In this document: one piece after another, positions 7,740 through 37,021 of the stretch | Layout of the letters: every line of letters starts with the position of its first letter | Position numbering within the stretch: position 1 is the stretch's first letter | DNA from: Macrostomum lignano | Lineage: Eukaryota | Assembly (NCBI GenBank): GCA_002269645.1 | Contig: NIVC01000467.1 | Location: forward strand, 362,232 to 426,231 | Reading direction: 5' to 3' | DNA: 64,000 nucleotides | Notes under the pieces: model-generated | Databases searched by the model: none | What the model saw: only the letters and a program-made list of their open reading frames with translations | What the model was told of the DNA's origin: nothing | Position numbers and translations under genes: made by a program

Positions 7740-7852
7740 TGATGTAACAGAGGCTGCAGTGTATACTGAATGACAATTAGGTAATGATGACGCAACAGTA
7801 GGGACTAGTGAATTTACTGCAATATACTTCAATGAAATTAGTGCTACATGTA

Positions 7853-10800
7853 CCCTATAGTCATTAGGTGTCTTCTACCTTCAGATTAGTTACAGGGCCG
7901 CAATGCTACCCTATAGTCATTAGGTGTCTTCTACCTTCAGATTAGTTACAGGGCCGCAATGCTACCCTATAGTCATTAGGTGTCTTCTACCTTCAGATTA
8001 GTTACAGGGCCGCAATGCTACCCTATAGTCATTAGGTGTCTTCTACCTTCAGATTAGTTACAGGGCCGCAATGCTACCCTATAGTCATTAGGTGTCTTCT
8101 ACCTTCAGATTAGTTACAGGGCCGCAATGCTACCCTATAGTCATTAGGTGTCTTCTACCTTCAGATTAGTTACAGGGCCGCAATGCTACCCTATAGTCAT
8201 TAGGTGTCTTCTACCTTCGGATTAGTTACAGGGCCGCAATGCTACCCTATAGTCATTAGGTGTCTTCTACCTTCAGATTAGTTACAGGGCCGCAATGCTA
8301 CCCTATAGTCATTAGGTGTCTTCTACCTTCAGATTAGTTACAGGGCCGCAATGCTACCCTATAGTCATTAGGTGTCTTCTACCTTCAGATTAGTTACAGG
8401 GCCGCAATGCTACCCTATAGTCATTAGGTGTCTTCTACCTTCAGATTAGTTACAGGGCCGCAATGCTACCCTATAGTCATTAGGTGTCTTCTACCTTCAG
8501 ATTAGTTACAGGGCCGCAATGCTACCCTATACTCATTAGGTGTCTTCTACCTTCTGATAAGTTACAGGGCCGCAATGCTACCCTATAGTCATTAGGTGTC
8601 TTCTACCTTCAGATTAGTTACAGGGCCGCAATGCTACCCTATACTCAATAGGTGTCTTCTACCTTCAGATTAGTTAAATGGCCACAATGCTACCCTATAG
8701 TCATTAGGTGTCTTCTACCTTCGGATTAGTTACAGGGCCGCAATGCTACCCTATACTCAATAGGTGTCTTCTACCTTCAGATTAGTTACAGGGCCACAAT
8801 GCTACCCTATAGTCATTAGGTGTCTTCTACCTTCGGATTAGTTACAGGGCCGCAATGCTACCCTATACTCAATAGGTGTCTTCTACCTTTAGATTAGTTA
8901 CAGGGCCGCAATGCTACCCTATACTCAATAGGTGTCTTCTACCTTCAGATTAGTTACAGGGCCGCAATGCTACCCTATACTCATTAGGTGTCTTCTACCT
9001 TCGGATTAGTTACAGGGCCACAATGCTACCCTATAGTCATTAGGTGTCTTCTACCTTCGGATTAGTTACAGGGCCGCAATGCTACCCTATACTCAATAGG
9101 TGTCTTCTACCTTCAGATTAGTTACAGGGCCACAATGCTACCCTATAGTCATTAGGTGTCTTCTACCTTCGGATTAGTTACAGGGCCGCAATGCTACCCT
9201 ATACTCAATAGGTGTCTTCTACCTTTAGATTAGTTACAGGGCCGCAATGCTACCCTATACTCAATAGGTGTCTTCTACCTTCAGATTAGTTACAGGGCCG
9301 CAATGCTACCCTATACTCATTAGGTGTCTTCTACCTTCGGATTAGTTACAGGGCCACAATGCTATAGTCTTTAGGTGTCTTCTACCTTCAGATTAGTTAC
9401 AGGGCCGCAATGCTACCCTATAGTCATTAGGTGTCTTCTACCTTCGGATTAGTTACAGGGCCGCAATGCTACCCTATAGTCATTAGGTGTCTTCTACCTT
9501 CTGATAAGTTAAATGGCCTCAATGCTACCCTATACTCATTAGGTGTCTTCTACCTTCTGATAAGTTAAATGGCCACAATGCTACCCTATACTCATTAGGT
9601 GTCTTCTACCTTCTGATAAGTTAAATGGCCACAATGCTACCCTATACTCATTAGGTGTCTTCTACCTTCTGATAAGTTAAATGGCCTCAATGCTACCCTA
9701 TACTCATTAGGTGTCTTCTACCTTCTGATAAGTTAAATGGCCACAATGCTACCCTATACTCATTAGGTGTCTTCTACCTTCTGATAAGTTAAATGGCCAC
9801 AATGCTACCCTATACTCATTAGGTGTCTTCTACTTTCTGATAAGTTAAATGGCCACAATGCTACCCTATAGTCATGAGGTGTCTTCTACCTTCGGATTAG
9901 TTACAGGGCCACAATGCTACCCTATACTCATTAGGTGTCTTCTACCTTCTGATAAGTTAAATGGCCTCAATGCTACCCTATACTCATTAGGTGTCTTCTA
10001 CCTTCTGATAAGTTAAATGGCCTCAATGCTACCCTATACTCATTAGGTGTCTTCTACCTTCTGATAAGTTAAATGGCCTCAATGCTACCCTATACTCATT
10101 AGGTGTCTTCTACCTTCTGATAAGTTAAATGGCCTCAATGCTACCCTATACTCATTAGGTGTCTTCTACCTTCGGATTAGTTACAGGGCCACAATGCTAC
10201 CCTATACTCATTAGGTGTCTTCTACCTTCTGATAAGTTAAATGGCCACAATGCTACCCTATACTCATTAGGTGTCTTCTACCTTCTGATAAGTTAAATGG
10301 CCTCAATGCTACCCTATACTCATTAGGTGTCTTCTACCTTCTGATAAGTTAAATAGCCACAATGCTACCCTATACTCATTAGGTGTCTTCTACCTTCTGA
10401 TAAGTTAAATGGCCTCAATGCTACCCTATACTCATTAGGTGTCTTCTACCTTCTGATAAGTTAAATGGCCACAATGCTACCCTATACTCATTAGGTGTCT
10501 TCTACCTTCGGATTAGTTACAGGGCCACAATGCTACCCTATACTCATTAGGTGTCTTCTACCTTCTGATAAGTTAAATGGCCTCAATGCTACCCTATACT
10601 CATTAGGTGTCTTCTACCTTCTGATAAGTTAAATGGCCTCAATGCTACCCTATACTCATTAGGTGTCTTCTACCTTCGGATTAGTTACAGGGCCACAATG
10701 CTACCCTATACTCATTAGGTGTCTTCTACCTTCTGATAAGTTAAATGGCCACAATGCTACCCTATACTCATTAGGTGTCTTCTACCTTCTGATAAGTTAA

Positions 10801-12724
10801 ATGGCCTCAATGCTACCCTATACTCATTAGGTGTCTTCTACCTTCTGATAAGTTAAATGGCCTCAATGCTACCCTATACTCATTAGGTGTCTTCTACCTT
10901 CTGATAAGTTAAATGGCCACAATGCTACCCTATACTCATTAGGTGTCTTCTACCTTCTGATAAGTTAAATGGCCTCAATGCTACCCTATACTCATTAGGT
11001 GTCTTCTACCTTCTGATAAGTTAAATGGCCTCAATGCTACCCTATACTCATTAGGTGTCTTCTACCTTCTGATAAGTTAAATGGCCTCAATGCTACCCTA
11101 TACTCATTAGGTGTCTTCTACCTTCTGATAAGTTAAATGGCCACAATGCTACCCTATACTCATTAGGTGTCTTCTACCTTCTGATAAGTTAAATGGCCTC
11201 AATGCTACCCTATACTCATTAGGTGTCTTCTACCTTCGGATTAGTTACAGGGCCACAATGCTACCCTATACTCATTAGGTGTCTTCTACCTTCTGATAAG
11301 TTAAATGGCCTCAATGCTACCCTATACTCATTAGGTGTCTTCTACCTTCTGATAAGTTAAATGGCCTCAATGCTACCCTATACTCATTAGGTGTCTTCTA
11401 CCTTCGGATTAGTTACAGGGCCACAATGCTACCCTATACTCATTAGGTGTCTTCTACCTTCTGATAAGTTAAATGGCCACAATACTACCCTATACTCATT
11501 AGGTGTCTTCTACCTTCTGATAAGTTAAATGGCCTCAATGCTACCCTATACTCATTAGGTGTCTTCTACCTTCTGATAAGTTAAATGGCCTCAATGCTAC
11601 CCTATACTCATTAGGTGTCTTCTACCTTCTGATAAGTTAAATGGCCACAATGCTACCCTATACTCATTAGGTGTCTTCTACCTTCTGATAAGTTAAATGG
11701 CCTCAATGCTACCCTATACTCATTAGGTGTCTTCTACCTTCTGATAAGTTAAATGGCCACAATGCTACCCTATACTCATTAGGTGTCTTCTACCTTCTGA
11801 TAAGTTAAATGGCCTCAATGCTACCCTATACTCATTAGGTGTCTTCTACCTTCTGATAAGTTAAATGGCCTCAATGCTACCCTATACTCATTAGGTGCCT
11901 TCTACCTTCTGATAAGTTAAATGGCCTCAATGCTACCCTATACTCATTAGGTGTCTTCTACCTTCGGATTAGTTACAGGGCCACAATGCTACCCTATACT
12001 CATTAGGTGTCTTCTACCTTCTGATAAGTTAAATGGCCACAATGTTACCCTATACTCATTAGGTGTCTTCTACCTTCTGATAAGTTAAATGGCCTCAATG
12101 CTACCCTATACTCATTAGGTGTCTTCTACCTTCTGATAAGTTAAATGGCCTCAATGCTACCCTATACTCATTAGGTGTCTTCTACCTTCTGATAAGTTAA
12201 ATGGCCTCAATGCTACCCTATACTCATTAGGTGTCTTCTACCTTCTGATAAGTTAAATGGCCACAATGCTACCCTATACTCATTAGGTGTCTTCTACCTT
12301 CTGATAAGTTAAATGGCCACAATGCTACCCTATACTCATTAGGTGTCTTCTACCTTCGGATTAGTTACAGGGCCACAATGCTACCCTATACTCATTAGGT
12401 GTCTTCTACCTTCTGATAAGTTAAATGGCCTCAATGCTACCCTATACTCATTAGGTGTCTTCTACCTTCAGATTAGTTACAGGGCCGCAATGCTACCCTA
12501 TACTCATTAGGTGTCTTCTACCTTCTGATAAGTTAAATGGCCTCAATGCTACCCTATACTCATTAGGTGTCTTCTACCTTCGGATTAGTTACAGGGCCAC
12601 AATGCTACCCTATACTCATTAGGTGTCTTCTACCTTCGGATTAGTTACAGTGCCTCAATGCTACCCTATACTCAATAGGCGTCTTCTACCTTCTGATAAG
12701 TTAAATAGCCTCAATGCTACCCTA
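7853..12724. repeat. 56-bp satellite array, ~87 copies, two variant classes
   Basis: Unit ATGCTACCCTATAGTCATTAGGTGTCTTCTACCTTCAGATTAGTTACAGGGCCGCA on the left, variant ...CTGATAAGTTAAATGGCCTCA on the right. Confidence 0.99.
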
Positions 12725-13808
12725 GGTTCATTATGCGGCTTCTACCGTAATATTAGTTATATTAGATTAAGTCATTAGATTCTAAATTCAACTACTAATA
12801 GTAGCGCAATTCGAAAAAAAACTGAAACAAAAGAGAAACGCTTTGAAATCTGTCTCAAGTCAGAATATGACAACAATTTTAATTATTACACAAAACTTTG
12901 GACAAACTATTTAATGTAGTAATCAAAAAAGAAACAAATCACATGCGAAAAAAACACATTTTAATAAAGCATAAGCTAAAGCGCAACTAGCTGTACACAA
13001 AAAACCATTTAAGAACGAAATTTAAACACTTTAATAATTTTGTTTTACAGAACTATTGTAATTTTTAGCTTCCCTAAAAATATCTCAACAGATATTAATT
13101 AACACAGCAGAATTAGCAAAATAGCGAAACAACCAGAGCCATTAAGGAACACACATAAGCAAAATGACTACTTTATATAGCAGATTAATTGAAGTGGATT
13201 GAATTTATAAATTCGTTTTCTAGTTTTTTTGTTGATAATATGTTGTGAGCTTGAGCAATCCAGCCCGCTCAAGGTTTGTGTCTCTTCGTGACTTCCTTAA
13301 ATTTATTCACTCCTCTCTCCATCTTCTCTCATCTGGCTGGTAGCCAGAAGCTGGATCATGATACGCATTTTCTTAACTGAATGGCCAGATATAGCGCATG
13401 AATGTGGGCCAAAGAGAGGAGAGGAAAGAATTGCGGGAATAGAGGAAACAGAAGAGAGAATGAGAGATGCGAGAGGAGAGGGAAGATGAGGGGAGATAGT
13501 AGAGGAGAGAGGAAAGGGGAGAGAAAAGGGAGAGGAGAGGGGAATAAGGGGAGAGAAGAGAAGAGGGAGAGAAAGGAGAGCTGAGAAGAGACAACCATTG
13601 AACTATTGTGAAGTTTCACGGACCCAAGGGCCGCGGATAGAGAGATGTGGCCCGCGGGCCAAGAGCTACATTAATTATCTAGCACTGGAGGTAAAAAATG
13701 TTGCCACTCTAATGCATCAATACTATACTTGATTTTTTAGTTAGCAGCTAATAAGAATCTACAAAAAAATCAAATTCAGTCGACAGTTGTTAATTTCATA
13801 GATACATA

Positions 13809-23780: not shown

Positions 23781-25538
23781 CTTCTCCCATCTAACCTCTA
23801 ATCTCTAGCCTACCCTTTACACATGCATGCCCAACACCCCACCAACCTGGCCATTTTGGCTGGGTAGTGAGAAGTCTGGCCAAGGTAAGTCACAAAATGC
23901 TAACCAGAAAACACATATATAGTACTAAGTAAATGAGGCATTTAGCCTTAATAATTTAGTGATTATTAATTCTGATGTTTACCCAAAACTTTTTCTTTGG
24001 TTTCTTTCATAGGTAAGTCAAGGGGGCCGTAGCCCAGCGGTCTAGCACAGGCTCTGGTGTTCCAAATAGTTTAAGGATGTATAGTAAATTAAATGGCTTT
24101 CATTTTAAAAACCTTGAACCTTTTTTTCCTTAAAAACTTTTTTCCATTTTGCTATTTTTCCTTTTCTTTTTGGGAGTGGTGAAAAAGAATTTACTAATAC
24201 CAATTTTAGGGCATTCTTCTATAACTAAGGCAAGTTTCCTAAAGTACTCATTGTTTATATAGTATAAATACAATTTTCTTAGTTTCATCATTTTTTTATT
24301 TATATTTATATTTATTTTATCTAAATCTACATTTAGATTTTTATTTAAAATACAGAAAAATCTGCCACACAATAGCTTAATTTTTTAAATTGCCATGTCA
24401 TAATATGTTGCTTATCTTGCTACTTTTTGCTTTGCTCCTACTTTTTGTTGATTTGTTGACTCATTATAAGTTTATAGTCAAACTCTTCTATATGTTTTCA
24501 ATTGTCTGATTTTGAAGATATTAAAGTTAATATAGAGAGAGTTGCTGCTATAATTTTGTGCAAAATGATATTAGTTAGATCATTAGAATAGGAGATATAA
24601 TGAAAAGTAGTACTACAATCAGGACAGCCTTCAAAGCTAGATGGATCAATTTTAACTTTATAATTATTAAATGCCTATCATTTAAAATAACCAGTTGACA
24701 ATTAACCAAATATTTCCTTTTTACCATAGTTCATATTGTGTATTAGTATACAATTGGTTGAATGCTAGAAAAAATATGAGACCTTGTTTGTACACTGGGA
24801 CTAAACAAATATATTATTGACAACTGTTTCCACTGTTATATATACTAGGATATGCTAATGTACACTAAAAATGGCTAATACCCTTGTTATACACTAGGAA
24901 ATCCTAGCATACATGTTGCCTTCCAAACTATGGCCTTTTAAAAAACAAAGGTTATCAAAACAACTATTTATATTTTTTACCAAAATGTCTGTCCCCAAAA
25001 CAACCTGCACTTATTCTATTAGTCTAACTATAGACCTATGCTATCTATATTGTTTTTTATTTAACTTTAGTTTCCCACTCTAAATTAGGCCTTATTTTCT
25101 AGATTTTTTGCTTTACCAGTAGGTCTAAAGAATAAAAAAATAATAAGGAAAAAAACTAAAAGTCAAAATAAAAAATCAATGAGCCATACAGCATAGTAGC
25201 CTAGTCTAAAGCAGGAAAGTGAAACAAATTGCTAAATTGTCAATCTAGAAATGCAAGAAAATAATCTAGAATGCCAAAGAAAATATGCCCAATTATAGTC
25301 TCATATCATAGTCAAGATCATAACATGCCTGCATTAGAATAAATCCTATCAAGAAAGTTTTAATAGGCTATACCACAACTTTTAGAAAAAATGCAAAAAT
25401 CAGTAATTTTCTATTTAAAAAAGACTAGTAAAACTTGTATTTGATCTGTTTCATAGAAAACACAATATAAAGGTTCATTAATTAAAAAGCCATCAATACA
25501 TCAGCAAACAAAAAGTGCTAATAAAAAGAAACTATATG

Positions 25539-26337
25539 TGAGAGAGGCCAAGTTTTGAATCCCTGCCGTTTTCTTAGTAACTGCGAAGTTTGTAGAATTT
25601 TGTTTGAATGCACCCATCCCCACCCCAATTTTCGTATAAATAGAAGGGAATTCAGCGCCCAGAGAGGCAACCGAGTTTTCAGGTTCATAGGCGATTTGCC
25701 TAACAAAATTTGAAGAATCTTTCAAAGTCTTCCTTATTTGCCAAAAGCTGAGAGCGAATGCTCATTGGACAAGAGGTAGAAATTACCAAGAGCAAAAGAC
25801 AAACAGTCTAAAAGCCAATAGCGGAACCGCGAACAGTAAAGGCGTAGAGAGCCAATTGAAGAGGGAGAAATATCCAAATAAACTGTTCGAACTGAACAAC
25901 CAATGGAAAGTCGTATATGACAAAATAAAATCTGTAAGAGAAAATTGAAATTCACTGGGCAAACTCGATCCATTGGAGGACGCTGCTTTAGGACTTAGTC
26001 ATCCCCCTCCCCCCCTAGCTGAACAGTGTCTTGCCGCTCGGGCACTGCGCGCTACCAGGGCAATCCGTGCTTACGTGAAAGCCCATAGCCTTACCTCAGT
26101 AACATCTTATTTTAGTAGTTCATAACGAATTCAATAAGCTAATATAATAAAATTCTAGAATTACAGCCAAACCCCCCCTTCAACAACTTGGTGGCACAGT
26201 GAGATAAAATTCAATAACAGTAAAGAGACCGGTAACAACTTGGTGCATCGGTGGGATAGTTATAATAATTAAATCCACCTCCCACAACTTGGTGATTGCG
26301 GTGGGATTTAGAGAATAATAAAAGGTGCCCTACCACA
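25539..26337 (+). repeat. 5' LTR
   Basis: About 98% identical to 34686-35484 (15 substitutions and 2 small indels by manual alignment). TATAAA at ~25635. Confidence 0.98.
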
Positions 26338-26340
26338 ACT

Positions 26341-26352
26341 TGGTGGCAGCGG
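26341..26352 (+). other. Primer-binding site complementary to the 3' end of tRNA-Leu (AAG/UAG type)
   Basis: TGGTGGCAGCGG, 3 nt after the LTR end, is the reverse complement of ...CCGCTGCCACCA of metazoan tRNA-Leu (from recalled tRNA sequences). Confidence 0.8.
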
Positions 26353-26436
26353 ATAGGGATCGAGATCCAGTGAAAAGACCCGATGTTGCTGAAAAAGTCG
26401 AATTGACAAAGAGAAATTATAGACTCGGAATAAGCC

Positions 26437-27402
26437 ATGGCAGCAATCAATGATACTATTGGACTATTAGCAGAAGAGTTGAGGAATAGATTAGAACTAG
26501 GGCCCATGAGACATATTAAAATTCAGAAGTATACCCCCAGCCAAGACATCTGAATCTGGCTGGTAGCCTTTGATCAGCGATGTGACGCCAAAGGAATAGA
26601 CGTAGCCAATAGGAAAACTGAGTTAGTAGCTAATTTGGACTTGTCAACTGCTTTCGCTGCAGTTCAGCGATTGAATTTGCCAGAAGAGTTGACCTATGAG
26701 GAGTTTAAGGATAGGCTTGTAGAAAGATTTGGTAGGCTAGGAAGTGCTTCCGAGTTCAATGAAGAATTTAGAGGAAGGATGCAGGGAAGAAATGAGGCGA
26801 CCGACATGTTTGCTGATGCCCTGATAGAGCTGTCAAGCCGAGCATTCCCAAACATGAATGCCGAGCAAAGAGAAGAAGAAGTGGTAGAACAATTCATAAA
26901 AGGTGTCAGAATCCCCTCAGATACAAGGGAGAAGCTGATTTTTGCGCAGCCAGCTAGCCTGCAGGAAGCTAGGCGCATGTTGAGGCGCATTGAAGCTGCT
27001 TGGCACATGTCCCACAAGAACGGAGTAAGAGTGATTAAAGACGAAGAAGGAGAGAAAGAGAGCCTGACAGAAGTCGTCAAGAAGCAGAAAGAGGAGCTGG
27101 AAAAGCAGCGAAAACTCATTCAGGAGCTACAGGCGGAGAGCCACAAAGAGAAGGTGCAGGTGTATCAGCCAATGGCTACTCAGCCAGTGCATTATCAGCC
27201 TGCTATAGTACAGCCTCAGCCTGTACGATATCAGCAAATGGCTTCTTAGCCCCAGCATGTGCGCTATCAGCCGAGGGCGTATCAGCCACGGCCACCCCCA
27301 CTAATGAACCAGCATCCCAGGTTCCCAGCGCAGTCTCAGCCATCATCAGCTAGACCCAACCAGCACCGATTTCCGCCAAGAAACCTGAATCAGGGAAACT
27401 GA
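26437..27402 (+). pseudogene. gag: Gypsy gag with two premature stops
   Basis: ATG at 26437; in-frame stops at 26551 (TGA) and 27247 (TAG). Retrotrans_gag-like segment FRGRMQGRNEATDMFADAL.EL...AFP...VVEQFIKG; natural end ...NQGN* at 27400-27402. Confidence 0.85.
27393..27402 (+). other. Probable -1 ribosomal frameshift site G GGA AAC at the gag-pol junction
   Basis: X XXY YYZ heptamer directly before the gag TGA. The pol frame is -1 relative to gag and open from 27393. Confidence 0.75.
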
Positions 27403-30400
27403 ATGGCAAGGGTCGGAAGTCGAGGCCACATCCCTCAAGCAGAACCCCAAGCGAAATGCAGGCCTCCCAAAATCCCCGCCAACCCGCTTGTGATACAGCA
27501 AACAGAGGATGGCAACTTGTAAAAAGGCGCAAGCGAAATGCTTATGCACCCAATGCGAAAATGCACCCTGTATCTATGCGAAATGCACCAACTGCGTCCA
27601 CTATGTCTGCACCAACTGCGTCTACTATGCCTGCATCATCTATGTCTACAGTATCAGCACCCGCTGCTGCAGCGCCCGCATCTGCTGCCGCAGCATCCCA
27701 ATTGCTTACTTCGCCCAATGTGTCAACCGCCGAGACCTCAGTCATCACGCCGATGACTGTCAAGCCCAAGAAGTCCCGTCGAAACCGCCGCCGCAAATCC
27801 AAGAAGACTCCAGCCAATGCCAAACTCGAGCTAATCAGCCCCAAGAGCTACGAAGCAATCGTAGTAGGCAACATCAATCGCCAAGAGATTGACTTCCTGC
27901 TAGATACTGGAGCTAGCAATAATTTCCTGAGTAAGTCAGTCTGGTCTAAAATTTTCAAGCCTGAGCAAATCAAGAATACAAGTAGAAGAGTATCTACTTT
28001 TGACGGAGCCACAGTACAGCTAGAAGGAGAAATTTCCGTTGCTGTTGAGTTTGGAGATATTCGAATTGAAATAATGTTCCTATTATGTGGCCACGAATGT
28101 GACAACATTTTGGGAATGGAATTCTTTCTTGAGCAGTGCGAAAGCATTCATCTGACAAAAGGGATGCTGATCCTAAAAGAAGGAGCCTGCATACCTATGC
28201 AGTACACGCACATGCCTGTACGAGTCTGCAGAGTGTACACTCAAGAAAAGGCAATTATCCCTGCGAATAGCGCACTGCGCATTCCAGTTAGACTGGTGGA
28301 GAATGCCGAAGCTAACTATGGCGCTCCAATGACCATAGAAACAATTGGTGATGGTGTAAGAGCCAAAGAGCTAACGATCGAAATGATCCCGACTCTGGTC
28401 ACTATGCAGCAGGGCGCCGCAGTCGTCGAAATTGTGAATCGGCACCCCGTTGAAGTCAGGTTGCCCAAATCTGCATTGGTAGGGCTCGCTAAGCCCATGA
28501 AGGCCAAAGATCTGCTCTATTGGTCAGCACCGACATCTGATCAGCAGCCATCAGCGGAAGTACAAGACTCAGCCCGTGTCAATCAGGTCCAAGCCACTGA
28601 AGAAGAGTGGGTGAGTGAAATTAGCATTGGTACTGATTTGACTACTGAACAGAGAGCAGCAGTAGTAGCATTAGTAAAAGAGCATCGAGAAGCTTTCTCT
28701 CAAAATGACCTCGATATGGGGCTAACTCATTTAGTGACCCAAGAAATTTCTTTGAAAGACGAGACCCCTTGTGAGAATCCCTACTCGCCGAATTCCTCCC
28801 CATCTCCAAAAGCAGGTCGATGCCCAGCTAGACGACATGCTAGCGAAAAATCTCATCCGTCCCTGCTATTCCACCTATTCCACCCCACTAGTCATCGTGC
28901 CAAAGAAAGATGGCACCATTCGCATTGTCAACGATTTCCGAGTGTTAAACTCGCGAGTGAACTATTTCCCCTACCCTCTCCCAAACATCCAAGAAACCTT
29001 CTCTAATCTCACAGGAAGCCAATTCTTCAGTAGCCTCGATCTTAACTCAGGCTATTGGCAGGTCCCAATTAAGGAAGAACATAAGTTCATGACAGCTTTC
29101 TCCACCCTGACTAGAGGACAGTTTGAGTACCAGGTGATGGCGCAGGGACTATCCAATGCTCCCGGTACCTTTCAGAGGCTAATGAACTTAGTACTCGCTG
29201 GAATTCAGCACAAGTTTGCTATGTCCTATATTGACGATATTGTCACTTATTCAAAACAGTTCGAAGACCATTTGTCCCATTTGAAAGAAGTTTTCCAGAG
29301 ACTAATCAATGCCGGATTAAAGCTTAGAGCGAAAAAGTGCAATTTGTTCCATAGAGAGCTGAAGTATTTAGGCCACGTGATAGGTAGAGATGGTATTCGA
29401 AGTGACGAAGCAAAGATCGAAGCGATCAAAAGCTGGCCTAAACTGAAAGAGGTGAAAGAGCTACGTAGCTTTTTAGGACTGTGTAATTATTACAGTCGAT
29501 TCGTGAAAAACTATGCTGAAGCCGCGCACCCACTGTTCCAGCTCACCCGAAAGGGAGTGCAAAATTTCTCAGCAAAATGGACAGATGTGCATGATAAGGC
29601 TTTTGAATCATTAAAACAGCGCATGATGTCAACAGAGGTGCTTGCGTATCCTGAATTCGTAGATGACGAAAATGTCAAAATGGTTCTGGATACCGATGCC
29701 AGTGAAGGACGGATTGGGGCCCGTTTAGGTCAGATCCAGTCCGATGGTATTGAAAGGCCTATTGCGTACTTTAGCCGCGCAATGAAAGAGTCGGAAAAGT
29801 GCTACCCTATCACTTGAAAGGAGTTGTTAGCACTTGTAGACGCTATGAGACACTTTCGTTTCTATTTGATCGGAAAAAGATTTCTCGCCTGAACTGACCA
29901 TAAAGCAATTCTCTGGTTGCTACGGCAGACTGAAGCCCAGGGTATCTTAGGACGTTGGATTGAGCGCCTGACTGAGTTTCAGTTTGACATTGAACACAGA
30001 AGTGGCGCCAAGCATACCAACGCGGACAGCTTGTCCAGGAGACCCGCGGAGACAGCCGAAACAGGCCAGAGTGATAAGTCAAACACTGAATTGGTGACTA
30101 AAGGCGATAATGCCAACCCAGAATTTCCCTCCCCCAACAGAGCCGAATTGGCCGAACTGAGTCAGAAGGCAAAGGCAGAGGACAGCTGTACAAGCCAGGC
30201 CCAGCTGCCAGTTGAGGACTCAATACCCGATTGTCCTGCTCCAACCCCCCTCTCGCTGAACCATTTAGCCACCCAGCCCCCGTGCCATTCAGTCCCCCAG
30301 CCCTCTCCCCCTTGTAATTGTGTTCAGGATAACAATTTGGAGCCACTGAGCTTGAGCCTTGCGCAATCGAGCCAAATCCCTGTAATGTCCAAACACGAAC

Positions 30401-32210
30401 AAGAGAGCGAGGTGCGAAGAGTCGATAAGCTCTTGACTGACTACCTCCCCGTCCCGCTGAAGCGTGACCAAATTGTTAATGCCCAGAGAGAGGACCCCTC
30501 GATCCGAACCCTCGTGCAATGGAAATGTGCGAAAGTTGAAATCCCAGTGCCCCAGAGAACCGACCCCCCGCTGTTAAAGCAAATGTGCAAAGCCTATGAG
30601 GCTATGAGAATTGAAAACGAATTGTTAATCGTGAAAGAGGACGAAAATTGGAAGGTTGTCCTGCCAGAGTCATTAGACAGGCTAGTTCTTGGCGATCTCC
30701 ACGATAGCCCACTAGCTGGACACTTAGGCAGAGACAAGACCATCCAGAAAGTCCGCGAGAGATTTTGGAGACCCGGTCTGACCACGGCAGTTGAGAAGTA
30801 CATCTCTGAATGTATACCCTGCCTGGAAAGCAAACGAGGACACAAGGTCCAAGCCCCCATCCAGTCCTTCCCTATCAGCGAGCCATTTCACCGCCTCCAT
30901 ATTGATATAATCGGGCCAATATCCAAGCAGAGTAGAAGAGGGCATTGATATGTGCTCACAGTGGTTGATAGCACCACGCGATACCCCTTTGCCTTTCCGA
31001 TCCGCAACCAGAAATCAGACACTGTCATTAAAATCCTGCAGGAGAGAATCTTCAGTGAGTATGGACAGTGCCACTGGATTCATACCGATAATGGTAAAAC
31101 ATTCCCCAGCAGACAGTTCAAGGCTTTCTGTGAACTCTATAATGTCAAGCAGACATTCACTACCCCCTACCATGCCCAGAGCAACGGCTTGGTAGAAAGG
31201 TTCAATAAGCAGATCAAGTCTATTATTACCTGCCTTATCAAGAAAGACCACAATAACTGGGATCTAATGATTCCAGCTGCGCTAGTTGCTGTCCGAACCA
31301 GTATCAATCAGACAACAGGTTTCATACCCCATTTCCTGTTATTTGGAAGGGAAGCCGTGTTACCTATGGACAATCAGATCAAGGACCCAAAGCACTACGC
31401 AGGCTATCCATCCTATGTTGCCTAACATGCCGAAAGACTAAATGTCGCCCAGAAACTCGTAAAAGAGAAATTGGAGAAGGTGATAAACCAAAGACAGACC
31501 GCTGCTGAAACTAGCAAACTGCCAAAGGAAGTACCGTTAGGAAGTTTAGTGCTTATTATTAACCCGCAGCTAGATAACGAGGAGTCGCATAAATTCCATA
31601 GACAGCGAAGATCAGCATACCGAGTTTTGAAGCAAATTTCAGAAGTAGTATTTAAGGTGCAGAAGGAGGAAGAAGGAAAGCTAGAAGGGAAAGAGTTGTT
31701 AGTGCATAGGGACAATTTAGCTGTAGTGCCAAATTCAGTTAAAGAAATTGCCGCCAGCCAGTTAGACAAAACTGCGATTGCGAGAGAACCTAAAGTTAAG
31801 GAAGCCAGCGCAGCACCGCAGAAGCGAAAGTTAAGGGAAGCCACCCCCGGAGGGAAGAGATAGAAGAATATGAAGAATCGGAAGATGAAAACCGCCTGAA
31901 TTGGCAATGCAATCTCCGAGACAATGATAATTTAGAGCCAGAAAGTGAAAGCGAGGATGAAGTATCAAGTGAGTCTGATAGTGAGATTTTTGAGGAAGAA
32001 GGCAGTGAGGTAGAAGAAGCAGAACCAATGCAAGAGGAAGAAAGAGAAGAGCTCGAACCTGAGCAAGAGGCAAACGAGATTACCGAAGAGGCGCCTAGAC
32101 CTGAGAAGAGGTACAACACTCGTAGTCAGATTAAGCCCCTGAACAGATGCTTGTGCTATCTGAAAAGGCTGATTACAGTGTGGCGCCTATTGCCCAATCT
32201 GACCTATTGA
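27393..32210 (+). pseudogene. pol: Gypsy pol (protease, RT, RNase H, integrase), disrupted
   Basis: FLLDTGAS (protease), YIDD (RT), LDTDAS (RNase H), H..HLG..KT...C..C zinc finger, and HIDIIGP / HTDNG / NGLVERFN (DDE). Frameshifts near 28770 and ~31850; stops at 29815, 29890, 30946 and 31423. Confidence 0.97.
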
Positions 32211-32289
32211 GAGACGGGAAGCAGAAGGAAGGCGCGCACAGGCGCAAAGGCGTGAGGAAGCAATCCCATTGGAAGAGAGAAGTTGGGTG

Positions 32290-32390
32290 CGGAGAGCCAA
32301 TGAGAGCACGTTGGGAAATTGGCTGTCTAAGCAAATCAGAGGCCACGATCCCTTTCCTGGGACCCCCCCGGAGAGGCCTATATAAGCGAG
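32290..32390 (+). promoter_or_regulatory. Putative internal promoter for retrotransposon ORF3 (CCAAT and TATA-like motifs)
   Basis: AGCCAAT at ~32295, reverse CCAAT (ATTGG) at ~32319 and CTATATAAG at ~32378, about 70 nt upstream of ATG 32452. Confidence 0.45.
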
Positions 32391-32451
32391 GCCCCTGATG
32401 CCCCGGAAGCCTCACATATTTGCAGAGATACCGAGAATTTCGGAAACAGCT

Positions 32452-34017
32452 ATGAGCGATCAAGAAGACGAATTTTTCTTGCTCAACGAGCTCCTGAGTT
32501 TGGACGACCCGTTCGATCTCCAGGAGGAAGTAGTGGTAGCGACTGCCGAACCTGGCACATCAGCAACCGCCGAATCTGGCACAATTGCCGAATCTGGCAC
32601 AATTGCCGAACCTGGCACATCAGCAACCGCCGAATCTGGCACAATTGCCAAACCTGGCACATCAGCAACCGCCGAACCTCGCACAGCCGCATCTGCCGAA
32701 TCTGGCACCCCTGTACTGGCCGACTCTGGCACGATTGCAACCGCCGACGCTGGCACTGTTGTGTGGGCACCAGCCAGAATGGGCACTGAAGCCGGCGCTA
32801 CTGCAGGCAAGCAGGGCGACGCGGCCAATGACAACCAGAGCACTGTTCCGAAACGCCCACCGATTTGAGGTGACCGAGACATAGAGGTGCCCGAAAGACA
32901 GCGCACACTGCTGACTAAGCCCGGAGCCCGGTTACGGTCGGTGGTCAAGCGAGTCGGGTCACCAGTGCGAGCCCCGGTACAGTCCAAGAAGACTGCTACG
33001 TCACGAATCCCGGTGTCTCAGGCTGCTGAGAATCGTGCTGCCATCCTGCAACGGCAGGCGGCCAGAGTCATTGACAGCCCTGATGTTGCCAAGAGGCACC
33101 CAGAGGCCGCGAATTCGACGGTAATGCTGCGTCTTGGCCCCGCAGTGCGGCGGATCTTGCCAAGGCCTCCACCACAGCAGCAATGACCGGTGCGAACATC
33201 ATCGCCGAAAGCGCGATCGGCTCGACAGGAGTCAACGGCATCACGGAGGAAGTCATCATCAGCGCCCCGCCGGCAGCTGGCTTGGCGACAGCCAAAGCCG
33301 CAGACGCAGCCGCAGCCGCAGCCGCAGACGCAGCCGCAACCGCAGCCGCCGCCGCAGCTGTTGACGCAGCCGCAGCCGCAGCCGCCGCAGCCGTTGACGC
33401 AGCCGCAGCCGCCGCAGCCGCCGCAACCGCAGCAGCAACCACAGCCACAACCGCTGGTATGGTCGCAACAGGCGCAGCCGCAAGCGTCGCCACCTCTGCT
33501 GCAACAACAACCGCAGGCTTCACAATCGGCCTCCTATCCGCCGCGTCAGACAATGATCTACCCGCAAGCGAATGACTGGAAGACAGGGGCTTGCGCCGTG
33601 AGCCAGCCTCAATATCAACAGCAACCGGAGCGGAGACAGTTCCCGCGCCCCATCGACGAGAACGGGCTTGGCGCCAACCTAAGCCGCATTCTGAGCGAGA
33701 TGCCGGAAGAGCGGCACGCCCATTTCAAGAAAAAGATTGCCCTGATTAAGGCATACCTCATGCGCATTGCGAACGTCAGATTGGATCGCGCTCTACCACA
33801 AAGAGCCCATGTGCGGCCGGTTCTAACTCTGCTCACCAACAGTTATTTGCAGGAGTAGGCGATTGCTGCTTGGAGGCGGGCAGTTGCCTACGCGCTGCAG
33901 GCGTTACGTGCGGCTGGCCAGCCGTACTACGCCACCCTTCTCCGAATTGAGGTGAGGTGGATGGCCGAGATTCTCGACTGGGGAGGACCGCTGCCGGAGG
34001 AGTTCGACATGGAGTGA
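32452..34017 (+). pseudogene. Retrotransposon accessory ORF3 of unknown function (~521 codons, three in-frame stops)
   Basis: ORF-track pieces 32398-32868, 32887-33186 and 33190-33858 are in one frame, which continues past TAG 33856 to TGA 34015-34017. Acidic N-terminus, AESGT and QP repeats, helical-looking C-terminus; no signal peptide or TM segment seen. Confidence 0.7.
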
Positions 34018-34685
34018 GATATGAACTATTAATGCCAGTGATGCTAGCATAGGTTTACTTACTTACAATATTACAGATCATTTCATAGACGTGTGAGCTT
34101 AATGTTTATCTATGTCAGTTTAATACTCAATTGCTTGAATTATTATTCTATGGTGCTTTGAAATAATACTTAGTTGACTTTGTGCCTGCAACGCGCTACA
34201 TTTTTATAGTTCGATTTTTATGCAAGCAATTATGCACAGTTGTTCAATTAGTATACTAGTACTCATCGACGATTTTGTCTACTTATCCGCCAGATGAGCA
34301 TAAATGCTCTCTCCTACATAAAGAAATGCACTTTCACACCTATGCTTACGAATTTTATCTTACACTCATTTTAATCCCTAAGCATGTATCAACAAATTCT
34401 AGTTTGCAACTTCATACTTAGCTTGGCGATTAATCTATCACATTTATTGCTTAATTTTCGAAACTGCGAGTACCACTTAATTTTTATATGCTTTCATATT
34501 CTGTCTACGATTACACCTACACTTTATGTGCACCTATTTCTAAACAAGTTTTATTTTTGTGTCTGTTTATCTAGCTCTATCATTAATTACTTTATTGCAC
34601 CTTTTTTACTACTGATAGTAATGAGTAGAATAATTTTCTCACTTTTATTTTTTCTTATTTGAAAATTATCCTTAGGGAAGCCAGT

Positions 34686-35484
34686 TGAGAGAGGCCAAGT
34701 TTTGAATCCCTGCCGTTTTCTTAGTAACTGCAAAGTTTGTAGAATTTTGTTTGAATGCACCCGTCCCCACCCCAATTTTCGTATAAATAGAAGGGAATTC
34801 AGCGCCCAGAGAGGCAACCGAGTTTTCAGGTTCATAGGCGATTTGCCTAACAAAATTTGAAGAATCTTTCAAAGTCTTCCTTATTTGCCAAAAGCTGAGA
34901 GCGAATGCTCATTGGACAAGAGGTAGAAATTACCAAGAGCAAAAGACAAACAGTCTAAAAGCCAATAGTGGAACTGCGAACAGTAAAGGCATAGAGAGCC
35001 AATTGAAGAGGGAGAAATATCCAAATAAACTGTTCGAACTGAACAACCAATGGAAAGTCGTATATGACAAAAGAAAATCCATAAGAGGAAATTGAAATTC
35101 ACCGGGCAAACTTGATCCATTGGAGGACGCTGCTTTAGGACTTAGTCATGCCCCTCCCCCCCTAGCTGAACAGTGTCTTGCCGCTCGGGCACTGCGCGCT
35201 ACCAGGGCAATCCGTGCTTACATGAAAGCCCATAGCCTTACCTCAGTAACATCATATTTTAGTAGTTCATAACGAATTCAATAAGCTAATATAATAAAAT
35301 TCTAGAATTACAGCCAAACCCCCCCCCTTCAACAACTTGGTGGCACAGTGAGATAAAATTCAATAACAGTAGAGACCAGTAACAACTTGGTGCATCGGTG
35401 GGATAGTTATAATAATTAAATCCACCTCCCACAACTTGGTGATTGCGGTGGGATTTAGAGAATAATAAAAGGTGCCCTACCACA
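34686..35484 (+). repeat. 3' LTR
   Basis: Direct repeat of 25539-26337, preceded by a short purine run AGGGAAG (weak PPT). Confidence 0.98.
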
Positions 35485-37021
35485 TATGCTAACTTAATTT
35501 TCTGTCAGTGAAAATATTGTCTTGTTGAAAGTTTTTGTCTTGCACCAAATTGTGCCAATTTTTTTGTCTTGCAAAGTACTGTGCCAGATTTCCTCTATTG
35601 CCTGCTATTGCGCCAAAATGCACTAGCATGGCACATGTCCAACCCCCTTTTGTGCCGGAATTTTCCATGAAAAAGGCCATCTTTCTAACTATAGGTCTTA
35701 GAGGCCTTTTTTGATGAAAATTGCCATGCGTATAGGCCTTTGTATGCAAGCAAATTGCAAGCTATTGTATTCTTTTTTATTTTTTACTATGTAGCATAAT
35801 ACACTGTCAATAGACTACTATAGGGCCTACTACAACTACAATAGCATAAAAAATGGGCAATTAGTGTGGTTAAGGGAAGTCAACAATTAGAAAAAGTCAC
35901 AACCAATTGGAAAATCCTCAAAAAAGAATTAACAGTCTTGCTTGTCTTGGTAATAAAGATATATTTTTAGTTTTCTTAAAAAAAAAAGATGTAGCAAATT
36001 TTATTAAATTAAAGTAGGCCTAATATAGAAAGGAAAAAAGTATTGTTTTGTTTTATTTTAGGTTTTGTTATTTAAAATATTTTGTGTATCGTATTTGATT
36101 TTTGCATTTGAATGGCAAAAAGGCAACCAATCAAAAGGGTGATAGTCAACAGGGCGACAGGATATTAAACCAAGAACTATTTAAGTGGCAGTAAGTAGAA
36201 CCTTGTTTTGTCGAAAATCTTAGAATCTGCCTTCTATCAAAAGCAATAACAAGATGTATTAAGACATTAGACATATTAGAATTGTACGTGTTGGTATTAT
36301 ACATGTATATATATATTAATGTACATTGAAACATAAATCAGTAGGGTTTATTTATTTCAGTTTTTAGCAGCAAACTAGGACTATGCAATTCTATTAACAT
36401 GGCAACTGCTCAGCAGATGCTTACTAAAGGCGTAAGTGAAATAAATGGACCTCATTAAATACATTTTAACATTTAATAGGCCTAGTGTGTCCAATACATG
36501 TCCAGATTTTATACATACCCCATTTTAACTGTTCATACATTTTAACAACACGTTTTAACAAATACAAGTATAATACATTTTTACTGCTTTTAACAAATAC
36601 TTCTAATGTATATGGAACTCGTAATTTCAATATAAATACACTGTAACTGTTGCCCTTTTGACTGTCAACCTTTTGACCTGTAGCCGACAAAAAAGGTTTT
36701 TTACCATTGAAATTGCAAAAAAAGGTCTTTTTTATTGTCACAATTGTAAAAAGGTCCTTTATAGGCCTATTATCCTAACACCTCAAAGGCCTAGGCATTG
36801 GGCCCTATATAGAAAGCATGATTGTTGGCCATGGGCCATGCTTCCCTGGTAGCTAAAAAATGTTTCTACATGGACTGCTGACCGCATATCTATAATACTA
36901 TATAGATGCATATTAATAGGTACTAGAAGAATCTAGAAAACAAGCCCCTTAATTTAGAGTAAGAAACTGACTTTATACCATAGGCCTATTCTATGACTCA
37001 AGACTAAAGCCTAGGCCTATT

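Follow-up and report, generated by a model that had tools for sequence, protein, structure and literature searches.

Variable arrays of primer-binding-site-like cassettes at the U5 end of a Ty3/gypsy clade in Macrostomum lignano

LTR retrotransposons are usually read by two working rules: each element has one primer-binding site (PBS), and its two LTRs are identical at birth. In the mouse endogenous retroviruses (ERVs) ETn, MusD and IAP, an imperfect PBS is the most frequent form, with perfect ones in scattered close relatives, a pattern that the accessible part of the source attributes to copying of the tRNA primer together with selection by 3' tRNA fragments (3'-tRFs); reversion of mismatched PBSs from the tRNA copy is proposed there, and PBS inheritance in Ty1 and Ty3 is described as strict (PMC7472051). 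In HIV-1, premature and aberrant second-strand transfer is documented in the available portion of a further report (PMC12657518). The flatworm elements described here resemble the mouse ERVs in that an imperfect PBS is common and a perfect one occurs in scattered relatives; as far as that source describes them, the mouse elements differ in having a single PBS with point mismatches and no array in U5 (PMC7472051).

The DNA analysed (the window, 64 kb of the M. lignano genome) contains a Ty3/gypsy element at 25539–35484, with 799-bp LTRs and a 4-bp target-site duplication (TSD; Table 1). An 11-nt junction, ACAACT followed by TGGTG (ACAACTTGGTG), has seven matches on the two strands of the window, all within the element, compared with approximately 0.03 expected by chance (128000/4^11). 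Their TGG starts, listed in Table 1, mark four sites on the 5' side (periods 52, 49 and 51 nt) and three in the 3' LTR, exactly the four-site array with three copied sites that an earlier note on this DNA had described. Cassettes A–C lie within both LTRs, which are 97.6% identical (19 differing of 801 columns), and the fourth site, the PBS, lies outside. The three cassettes are 60–75% identical overall and 50–62% in the middle, values that speak against a recent tandem duplication. The same insertion with the same flank is found on another contig (G000:C544:531767-541766; haplotype or duplicated chromosome). Just upstream of the array lies a palindrome, AATTCTAGAATT (26150–26161), which we take to resemble a heat-shock element core. 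Heat-shock elements have been described in LTRs of M. lignano in the accessible part of an LTR survey (10.1101/2024.12.18.629116). Elsewhere in the window, a 56-bp array of 87 copies occupies 7851–12746, and many other minisatellites lie in introns and intergenic stretches, between host exons (UCH, BTB, DUF829, Iso_dh, Raptor_N and Smr).

Table 1. Features of the element and its flanks, in window coordinates
Feature	Position	Strand	Remark
Left TSD, TATG	25535..25538	+	Direct repeat of right flank
5' LTR	25539..26337	+	799 bp, TG...CA
Basal U5 end (C-run ... ACA) + ACT	26170..26188	+	First junction of the array
Cassette A (cluster 21)	26189..26240	+	Decayed Leu-PBS head, body, ACA end, ACT
Cassette B (cluster 12)	26241..26289	+	Head 1 base short of common form, giving the 11-nt Gly match
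Cassette C (cluster 27)	26290..26337	+	Integrase end of the window copy
ACT spacer, LTR to PBS	26338..26340	+	Mirrors AGT after the polypurine tract; presumably trimmed at integration
Terminal PBS, tRNA-Leu(AAG/TAG)	26341..26360	+	12 nt perfect, 3-nt A-rich bulge, then 5 more nt matched (GGGAT)
gag	26437..27400	+	In-frame stops in window copy; end approximate
pol, PR-RT-RNase H-IN	27354..32200	+	Several stops and frameshifts in window copy; end approximate
Third ORF region, low-complexity	32300..34019	+	Broken in window copy; start approximate
Polypurine tract (PPT) + AGT	34674..34685	+	
3' LTR	34686..35484	+	Cassettes A, B and C from 35338, 35388 and 35437
Right TSD, TATG	35485..35488	+	

The element has the features of Ty3/gypsy (Metaviridae): direct LTRs with TG..CA ends, a TSD, a tRNA PBS, a PPT and, by Pfam, the order PR-RT-RNase H-IN (window fragments and the single ORF of a relative). 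The closest named Pol to a relative's RT region, at 89% identity, is labelled M. lignano. Elements of the Gmr1 clade have the integrase upstream of RT, an order seen neither in the window fragments nor in the relative's ORF, and membership of that clade was rejected. An env ORF, as in Errantivirus, was not found: the third ORF of five relatives gave no Pfam match at E 0.1. This ORF, after pol, spans approximately 300–650 codons from stop to stop in the clade (window 32300–34019; L171:2080-3591(-)); the one translated is of low complexity with a more ordinary C-terminal stretch of approximately 110 residues, and in the window a TATA-like motif (32379–32386) lies upstream. The CsRn1-clade elements of flatworms and insects, as described in the accessible text of PMC2582038, share with the window clade occurrence in flatworms, a 4-bp TSD, TG..CA ends and a gag/pol overlap. 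They differ in having a tRNA-Trp rather than a tRNA-Leu PBS and a CHCC Gag motif, in place of which inspection of our alignment showed a CCHC-type knuckle in two of seven sequences, a Cys-rich variant in two and neither in three; the window clade also has the third ORF and the cassette array. Because two CsRn1 features fail, we withhold that assignment.

The array is a clade-wide trait in the M. lignano genome. Cassettes were present in 32 of 33 further relatives (69–91% Gag identity; two by eye only), and the array-bearing rows formed one RT clade (28 rows, SH-aLRT 96) in a tree computed in quick mode, without bootstrap and with unlabelled outgroups. In more distant groups there is either a single broken PBS or an addition of one or two longer units. 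Among relatives with 50–56% Gag identity, four (L293 and L294, at G000:C73 and C20, L295 and L297) carry extra PBS-bearing units: one of 85 nt that lies in both LTRs and has a perfect Leu head, one of approximately 80 nt, and a doublet of 34 nt. At 110–360 nt upstream of the PBS, L293–L296 and L298 have a partial PBS motif (GGTGGCAGC ... CTACCA), which may be an older fixed U5 element. Neither the array pattern nor the Gag profile was found in metagenome and viral contigs, collections that are poor in animal DNA.

Each cassette (approximately 50 nt) consists of a tRNA-Leu-like head, an A-rich body of approximately 20 nt, a CA end and ACT. The head pattern, TGGT-RRCA-n-GTRRRAT, is that of a decayed tRNA-Leu PBS; host tRNA-Leu(AAG/TAG) genes define the 18-nt site TGGTGGCAGCGGTGGGAT, in agreement with the tRNA-Leu complementarity first noticed in the window. 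The att-like cassette-end features, CT at −8/−7 and ACA, are found in 70, 69 and 68 of 73 bodies, and each unit joins a usable LTR end to a PBS-derived head, as expected if the units mimic LTR termini. The description of every spacer as containing AATAA and ending in ACA holds for the three in the window, but AATAA occurs in only 16 of 73 bodies genome-wide; a polyadenylation-signal role was rejected, as AATAAA occurs in 2 of 73. We also rejected a hairpin or self-priming role: mean fold z-scores over 71 units were 0.11 (plus strand) and 0.08 (minus strand), and no in-register covariation was found in 145 units (one off-register cell of 96 at p = 0.002). The LTR and units gave no Rfam match, tRNA included. 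Bodies are related across families (median identity 59%), and recent exchange between distant families was not detected, the best cross-family body identity being 0.86 between sister subfamilies and otherwise at most 0.79. The same body can be found with a perfect or a decayed head (clusters 48, 63, 67 and 74).

Head decay follows a distinct pattern. Changes in the 137 imperfect head types comprised 290 G>A, 96 G>T, 45 C>T, 16 T>C and 4 A>G. The LTR background shows a mild G>A excess (0.29, versus 0.12 for A>G and 0.15 for T>C), too weak to account for the imbalance of G>A over A>G and T>C in the heads, and pure mutation bias was thus rejected. Positions with T or A in the head are conserved (match 0.91–0.97); heads mostly depart from the primer within nt 5–11, and insertions cluster at nt 8–12. 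Compared with a mutation-matched null, heads show weaker binding to the tRNA end (−19.2 versus −20.5 ± 0.4 and −21.1 ± 0.4 kcal/mol), a comparison that overstates significance because heads are related, and pairing of the head complement with the PBS does not exceed that of the null. These data bear on the proposal, made in the earlier note, that the heads act as decoys, that is, target mimics soaking up 3' tRNA-Leu fragments. Partial complementarity to the primer end is retained (mean −19.8 kcal/mol over the 137 types), the head insertions fall near the probable slicing position of an 18-nt fragment, and 3'-tRFs target PBSs in mouse ERVs, according to the accessible part of PMC7472051. However, the seed match to the 18-nt tRF, GGTGGGA, survives in just 19 of 137 head types, G14–G16 are often A, and binding falls below the null, which together make the decoy reading very improbable.

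The terminal PBS is usually bulged after 11–12 nt, with breaks at nt 11–15. A perfect site pairs with the primer end at −39 kcal/mol, compared with −24.5 to −32.5 kcal/mol for bulged terminal sites. Of the 38 paired insertions, 7 had a perfect terminal PBS, as did 11 of 60 loci when duplicates were counted; such sites occur in several subfamilies, and one perfect-PBS copy is 100% identical to a bulged copy over 500 leader nt (L195/L167). The idea that a perfect PBS is always a dead end is tempered by one subfamily in which 5 of 12 copies have it, and by distant relatives with perfect sites. In the sister group (L281–L292, 56–58% Gag identity), the single Leu PBS is also broken at nt 11–15 and arrays are absent, suggesting that the bulged PBS is older than the arrays. 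One-way conversion to the perfect form would be expected, yet the bulged PBS has long survived across families, which implies selection against the perfect site.

The 11-nt match of the second unit to host tRNA-Gly(GCC) reported from the window is real, but probably due to chance and not a record of Gly priming: its head is one base shorter than the commoner GACATCG head, and we estimate approximately 0.4 matches of this kind by chance, assuming some 50 tRNA ends. The possibility that cassettes are copies of other tRNAs was rejected, as only this Gly 11-mer and some heads of 9 nt resembling Leu(CAG) turned up against an incomplete host tRNA set (an Rfam search scored 63 of 61,948 candidates, and patterns recovered Leu, Gly, Ile, Phe and Tyr). 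Many tRNA-Ile-like genes were seen with an apparent GAT anticodon, read by eye (G000:C27:785372-785438 and approximately 20 other places); this anticodon is unusual for tRNA-Ile in eukaryotes.

To survey arrays across copies, loci were collected by a DNA search of the worm's own genome with the array (at least 66 matches, 40 of 71 candidates scored), and pattern and Gag searches widened the set to at least seven subfamilies. From the pattern searches, 63 of 69 places were taken, the other six overlapping loci already included; 40 further places were hand-picked from 150 Gag-search rows, so sampling is partial. The two-junction pattern, with 250 matches against 99 in the control and unrelated satellites among them, was used only for locus finding. 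A cassette profile gave 704 matches in the sampled loci and none in reversed loci. Parsing yielded 129 distinct arrays, 229 distinct units (196 at a period of 50–55 nt) and 91 body clusters; one subfamily also has a unit of approximately 81 nt. After removal of 14 doubtful clusters and four doubtful groups, leaving 72 clusters, 78 distinct LTR-end arrays held one to seven units, confirming that LTRs end at different unit boundaries. Sampled copies carry zero to seven cassettes of approximately 70 types. Those without a cassette at one or both ends have nevertheless inserted (C1098, C2293 and the 5' side of C1860). Two tandem elements sharing one LTR were seen at G000:C1098:205906-226000; the parser found no cassette in their LTRs. 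Shortened copies (approximately 4–6 kb, without a long pol ORF where mapped: L147, L156, L160, L170, L178, L189 and L212) carry full arrays within LTRs that are 99.8–100% identical, indicating that non-autonomous derivatives are likely to take part.

Order varies along with number. The window family alone has the arrays ABC, AB, BC, C, an A-C-C-B type and A-like-C-B. Five of 15 cassette pairs conflict in order in one family without repeated units; in three other groups, the figures are 10 of 40, 1 of 7 and 0 of 13. Some conflicts in the largest family stem from clusters repeated within one array. Joints that skip forwards or go back at the same unit boundaries were found in contigs of two DNA-like runs from different studies, and the variation is thus not peculiar to the assembly.

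Within single young insertions, too, one LTR can differ from the other by whole cassettes. Of 38 distinct insertions whose LTRs were 95% identical or more, 31 were symmetric, one was a tandem and six were asymmetric by whole cassettes, five of these with a matching TSD; four of the six were labelled by script and two were read from the flanks and then confirmed. All were read from assembly contigs, where chimeric assembly is possible, most of all for those longer on the 5' side. In C759, the 3' LTR has one extra cassette, the LTRs are otherwise identical (708/708) and the TSD GGTT follows directly; in C1860, the 3' LTR has three more and the TSD CAAG follows directly. In C391 (one extra, TSD AATA), C754 (two, TSD CAGC) and C390 (one, TSD ATCT), the additional cassettes are on the 5' side, following the LTR end and preceding the PBS, and begin with a perfect 18-nt head, so that the LTR ends exactly at an internal perfect tRNA-Leu site. 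These are three TSD-confirmed cases of an internal site serving as the LTR boundary, as had been anticipated from the window. Siblings (C723 and C269) hold such cassettes of the 5'-longer copies in both LTRs. In C221, which has two units more, the head is decayed and a matching TSD is absent.

Could such variation arise from a minisatellite, that is, an old tandem duplication of the U5/PBS junction altered at the DNA level by slippage or unequal recombination after insertion? Deletion could be mediated by the 11–15-nt repeat found at every junction, some arrays do contain identical units side by side, and the genome is rich in tandem repeats. This reading leaves unexplained the perfect 18-nt tRNA copies at break points, the 3' LTR ends that shift in step with matching TSDs, the reordering of unlike units and the asymmetry of LTRs that are otherwise 99.7–100% identical; we regard it as improbable.

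Perfect heads occupy the last, PBS-proximal position in six of nine arrays (2.8 expected, p = 0.026), in a set found with a pattern that selects such heads and numbering only nine arrays. The tendency fits the proposal of a historical record, in which successive downstream shifts of priming left former PBSs and LTR ends behind as an ordered log of different primer tRNAs, and the sibling pairs imply that an outer cassette has been trapped into both LTRs. Against it, cassette order is unstable between copies, the bodies are unlike the element's own leader (by inspection), and the heads are decayed tRNA-Leu sites, with the Gly match a minor variant. Conflicts between close copies speak against a fixed record of primer use, and the historical reading as a whole seems quite improbable. 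Backup priming, the other role suggested for the internal sites, suits the minority of heads that are perfect but not the rest.

The U5 end is a variable array of interchangeable cassettes, each a PBS-like head, a body and an integrase end. We think it likely that these are gained, lost and reordered during reverse transcription, when priming or strand transfer hits a wrong copy of the repeated junction. The evidence for the individual steps comes from inserted copies. Normally, tRNA-Leu would prime at the terminal bulged PBS and all cassettes would be copied into both LTRs. Plus-strand strong-stop DNA would sometimes carry the 18-nt tRNA copy, which in register would yield a perfect PBS; an out-of-register landing of the 18-nt tail, on a cassette in the second, co-packaged RNA, would produce a PBS-proximal gain with a perfect head. 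A perfect internal head may out-compete the bulged PBS (−39 versus about −25 to −33 kcal/mol) and thereby shorten the LTR; the same product would arise by internal priming or by out-of-register transfer. When transfer starts at an inner junction and lands on the PBS, cassettes would be lost from the 5' side, and template switching at the shared junction could reorder whole cassettes. Mis-transfers could still insert because every unit is a complete integrase end. Cassettes would persist if the integrase end works and priming ability is lost. Head damage near the primer 3' end would follow from such persistence, and weak head binding relative to the null fits the longest survival of unprimable units. 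On this account, the array would for the most part perpetuate itself, and any benefit to the element would be secondary.

The conserved T and A positions and the narrow period exceed what the strand-transfer model needs and hint at a further function. The array may be adaptive, either as a fast-diversifying U5 end or as a helper that binds the tRNA in the manner of a bipartite PBS, a reading that overlaps in part with the preferred one, as do the other alternatives. Its near-universal presence within one RT clade and the conserved head pattern speak for this, as do the complementary placing of PBS breaks (nt 11–15) and head departures (nt 5–11) and the persistence of the bulged PBS despite conversion in 7 of 38 insertions. 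Insertion of cassette-free ends, and a sister group with the same broken PBS and no arrays, speak against it, and we hold it possible but doubtful. The benefit would be escape from sequence-specific silencing (by piRNAs, 3'-tRFs or DNA-binding repressors) or completed priming at the bulged PBS. We offer tentatively, and with similar doubt, a reading of the cassettes as a built-in diversifier or as selfish elements of a second tier. As 50-nt units, they would ride the element's strand transfers, insert PBS-proximally like leader-end spacers, spread between co-packaged genomes and renew U5 and the integrase end ahead of host small-RNA recognition, with the bulged PBS defended against tRNA-templated repair.

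Both working rules of LTR biology are broken in this one clade, in which 6 of 38 young insertions differ by whole cassettes. Cassette variation affects LTR annotation and dating, and cassette differences offer a genomic read-out of the strand-transfer route taken by each insertion. The trade-off that sets priming against silencing by tRFs, so far argued from mouse ERVs, becomes testable in a flatworm model for which transgenesis has been published. In the literature searched, which left most subscription journals and Repbase notes outside its scope, no account of shuffled PBS/att arrays in U5 came to light. The accessible part of the M. lignano LTR survey does not mention arrays, and its supplements or an earlier classification paper could describe the lineage (10.1101/2024.12.18.629116). 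New here are the clade-wide cassette diversity, the reordering and the LTR asymmetry.

Several known systems share single aspects of the array. CRISPR arrays combine a short repeat with unlike spacers of near-constant length and grow preferentially at one end; cassette bodies, by contrast, are inter-related (median 59%), and nothing pointed to foreign capture or a guide function. Drosophila 412/mdg1 may have a second PBS, although the literature searched did not confirm it. Helenus/TRIMp3 elements likewise have tRNA-related sequence in their LTRs and, in animals, a 4-bp TSD, but in the accessible description they are non-autonomous and the sequence is a tRNA-derived Pol III promoter with no priming role, whereas the flatworm elements are coding and have PBS-sense repeats without an Rfam tRNA match in the LTR (PMC10886601). 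The bipartite PBS of Ty3 and Ty1 (PMC5371799) and the 5' and 3' PBS of Drosophila Gypsy (PMC1635307) share with the array more than one tRNA-complementary stretch per genome and a short 5' PBS. Unlike the cassettes, the second site in these elements is, in the available parts of both sources, single and fixed (in U3, at the 3' end or beside the PBS), lacks an integrase end and is invariant in number and order (PMC5371799, PMC1635307). In the bipartite type, the fixed second site pairs with the T arm and priming depends on it. Cassette heads keep GTRRRAT, as a bipartite site might, but their number drops to none at one or both ends. Against the strict PBS inheritance described for Ty1 and Ty3, the flatworm clade shows reversion of the tRNA type (PMC7472051, accessible part), which suggests that a gypsy element can inherit the tRNA copy in the manner of a retrovirus, in contrast to Ty3 as presented in the available text of PMC5371799. 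The proposed mechanism is like that of HIV-1 in invoking the same mis-transfers, with a tRNA copy left at the junction; in the accessible account, those of HIV-1 give defective proviruses (PMC12657518), whereas in the flatworm clade each junction carries a complete end, so that TSD-flanked insertions result and the error turns into heritable variation.
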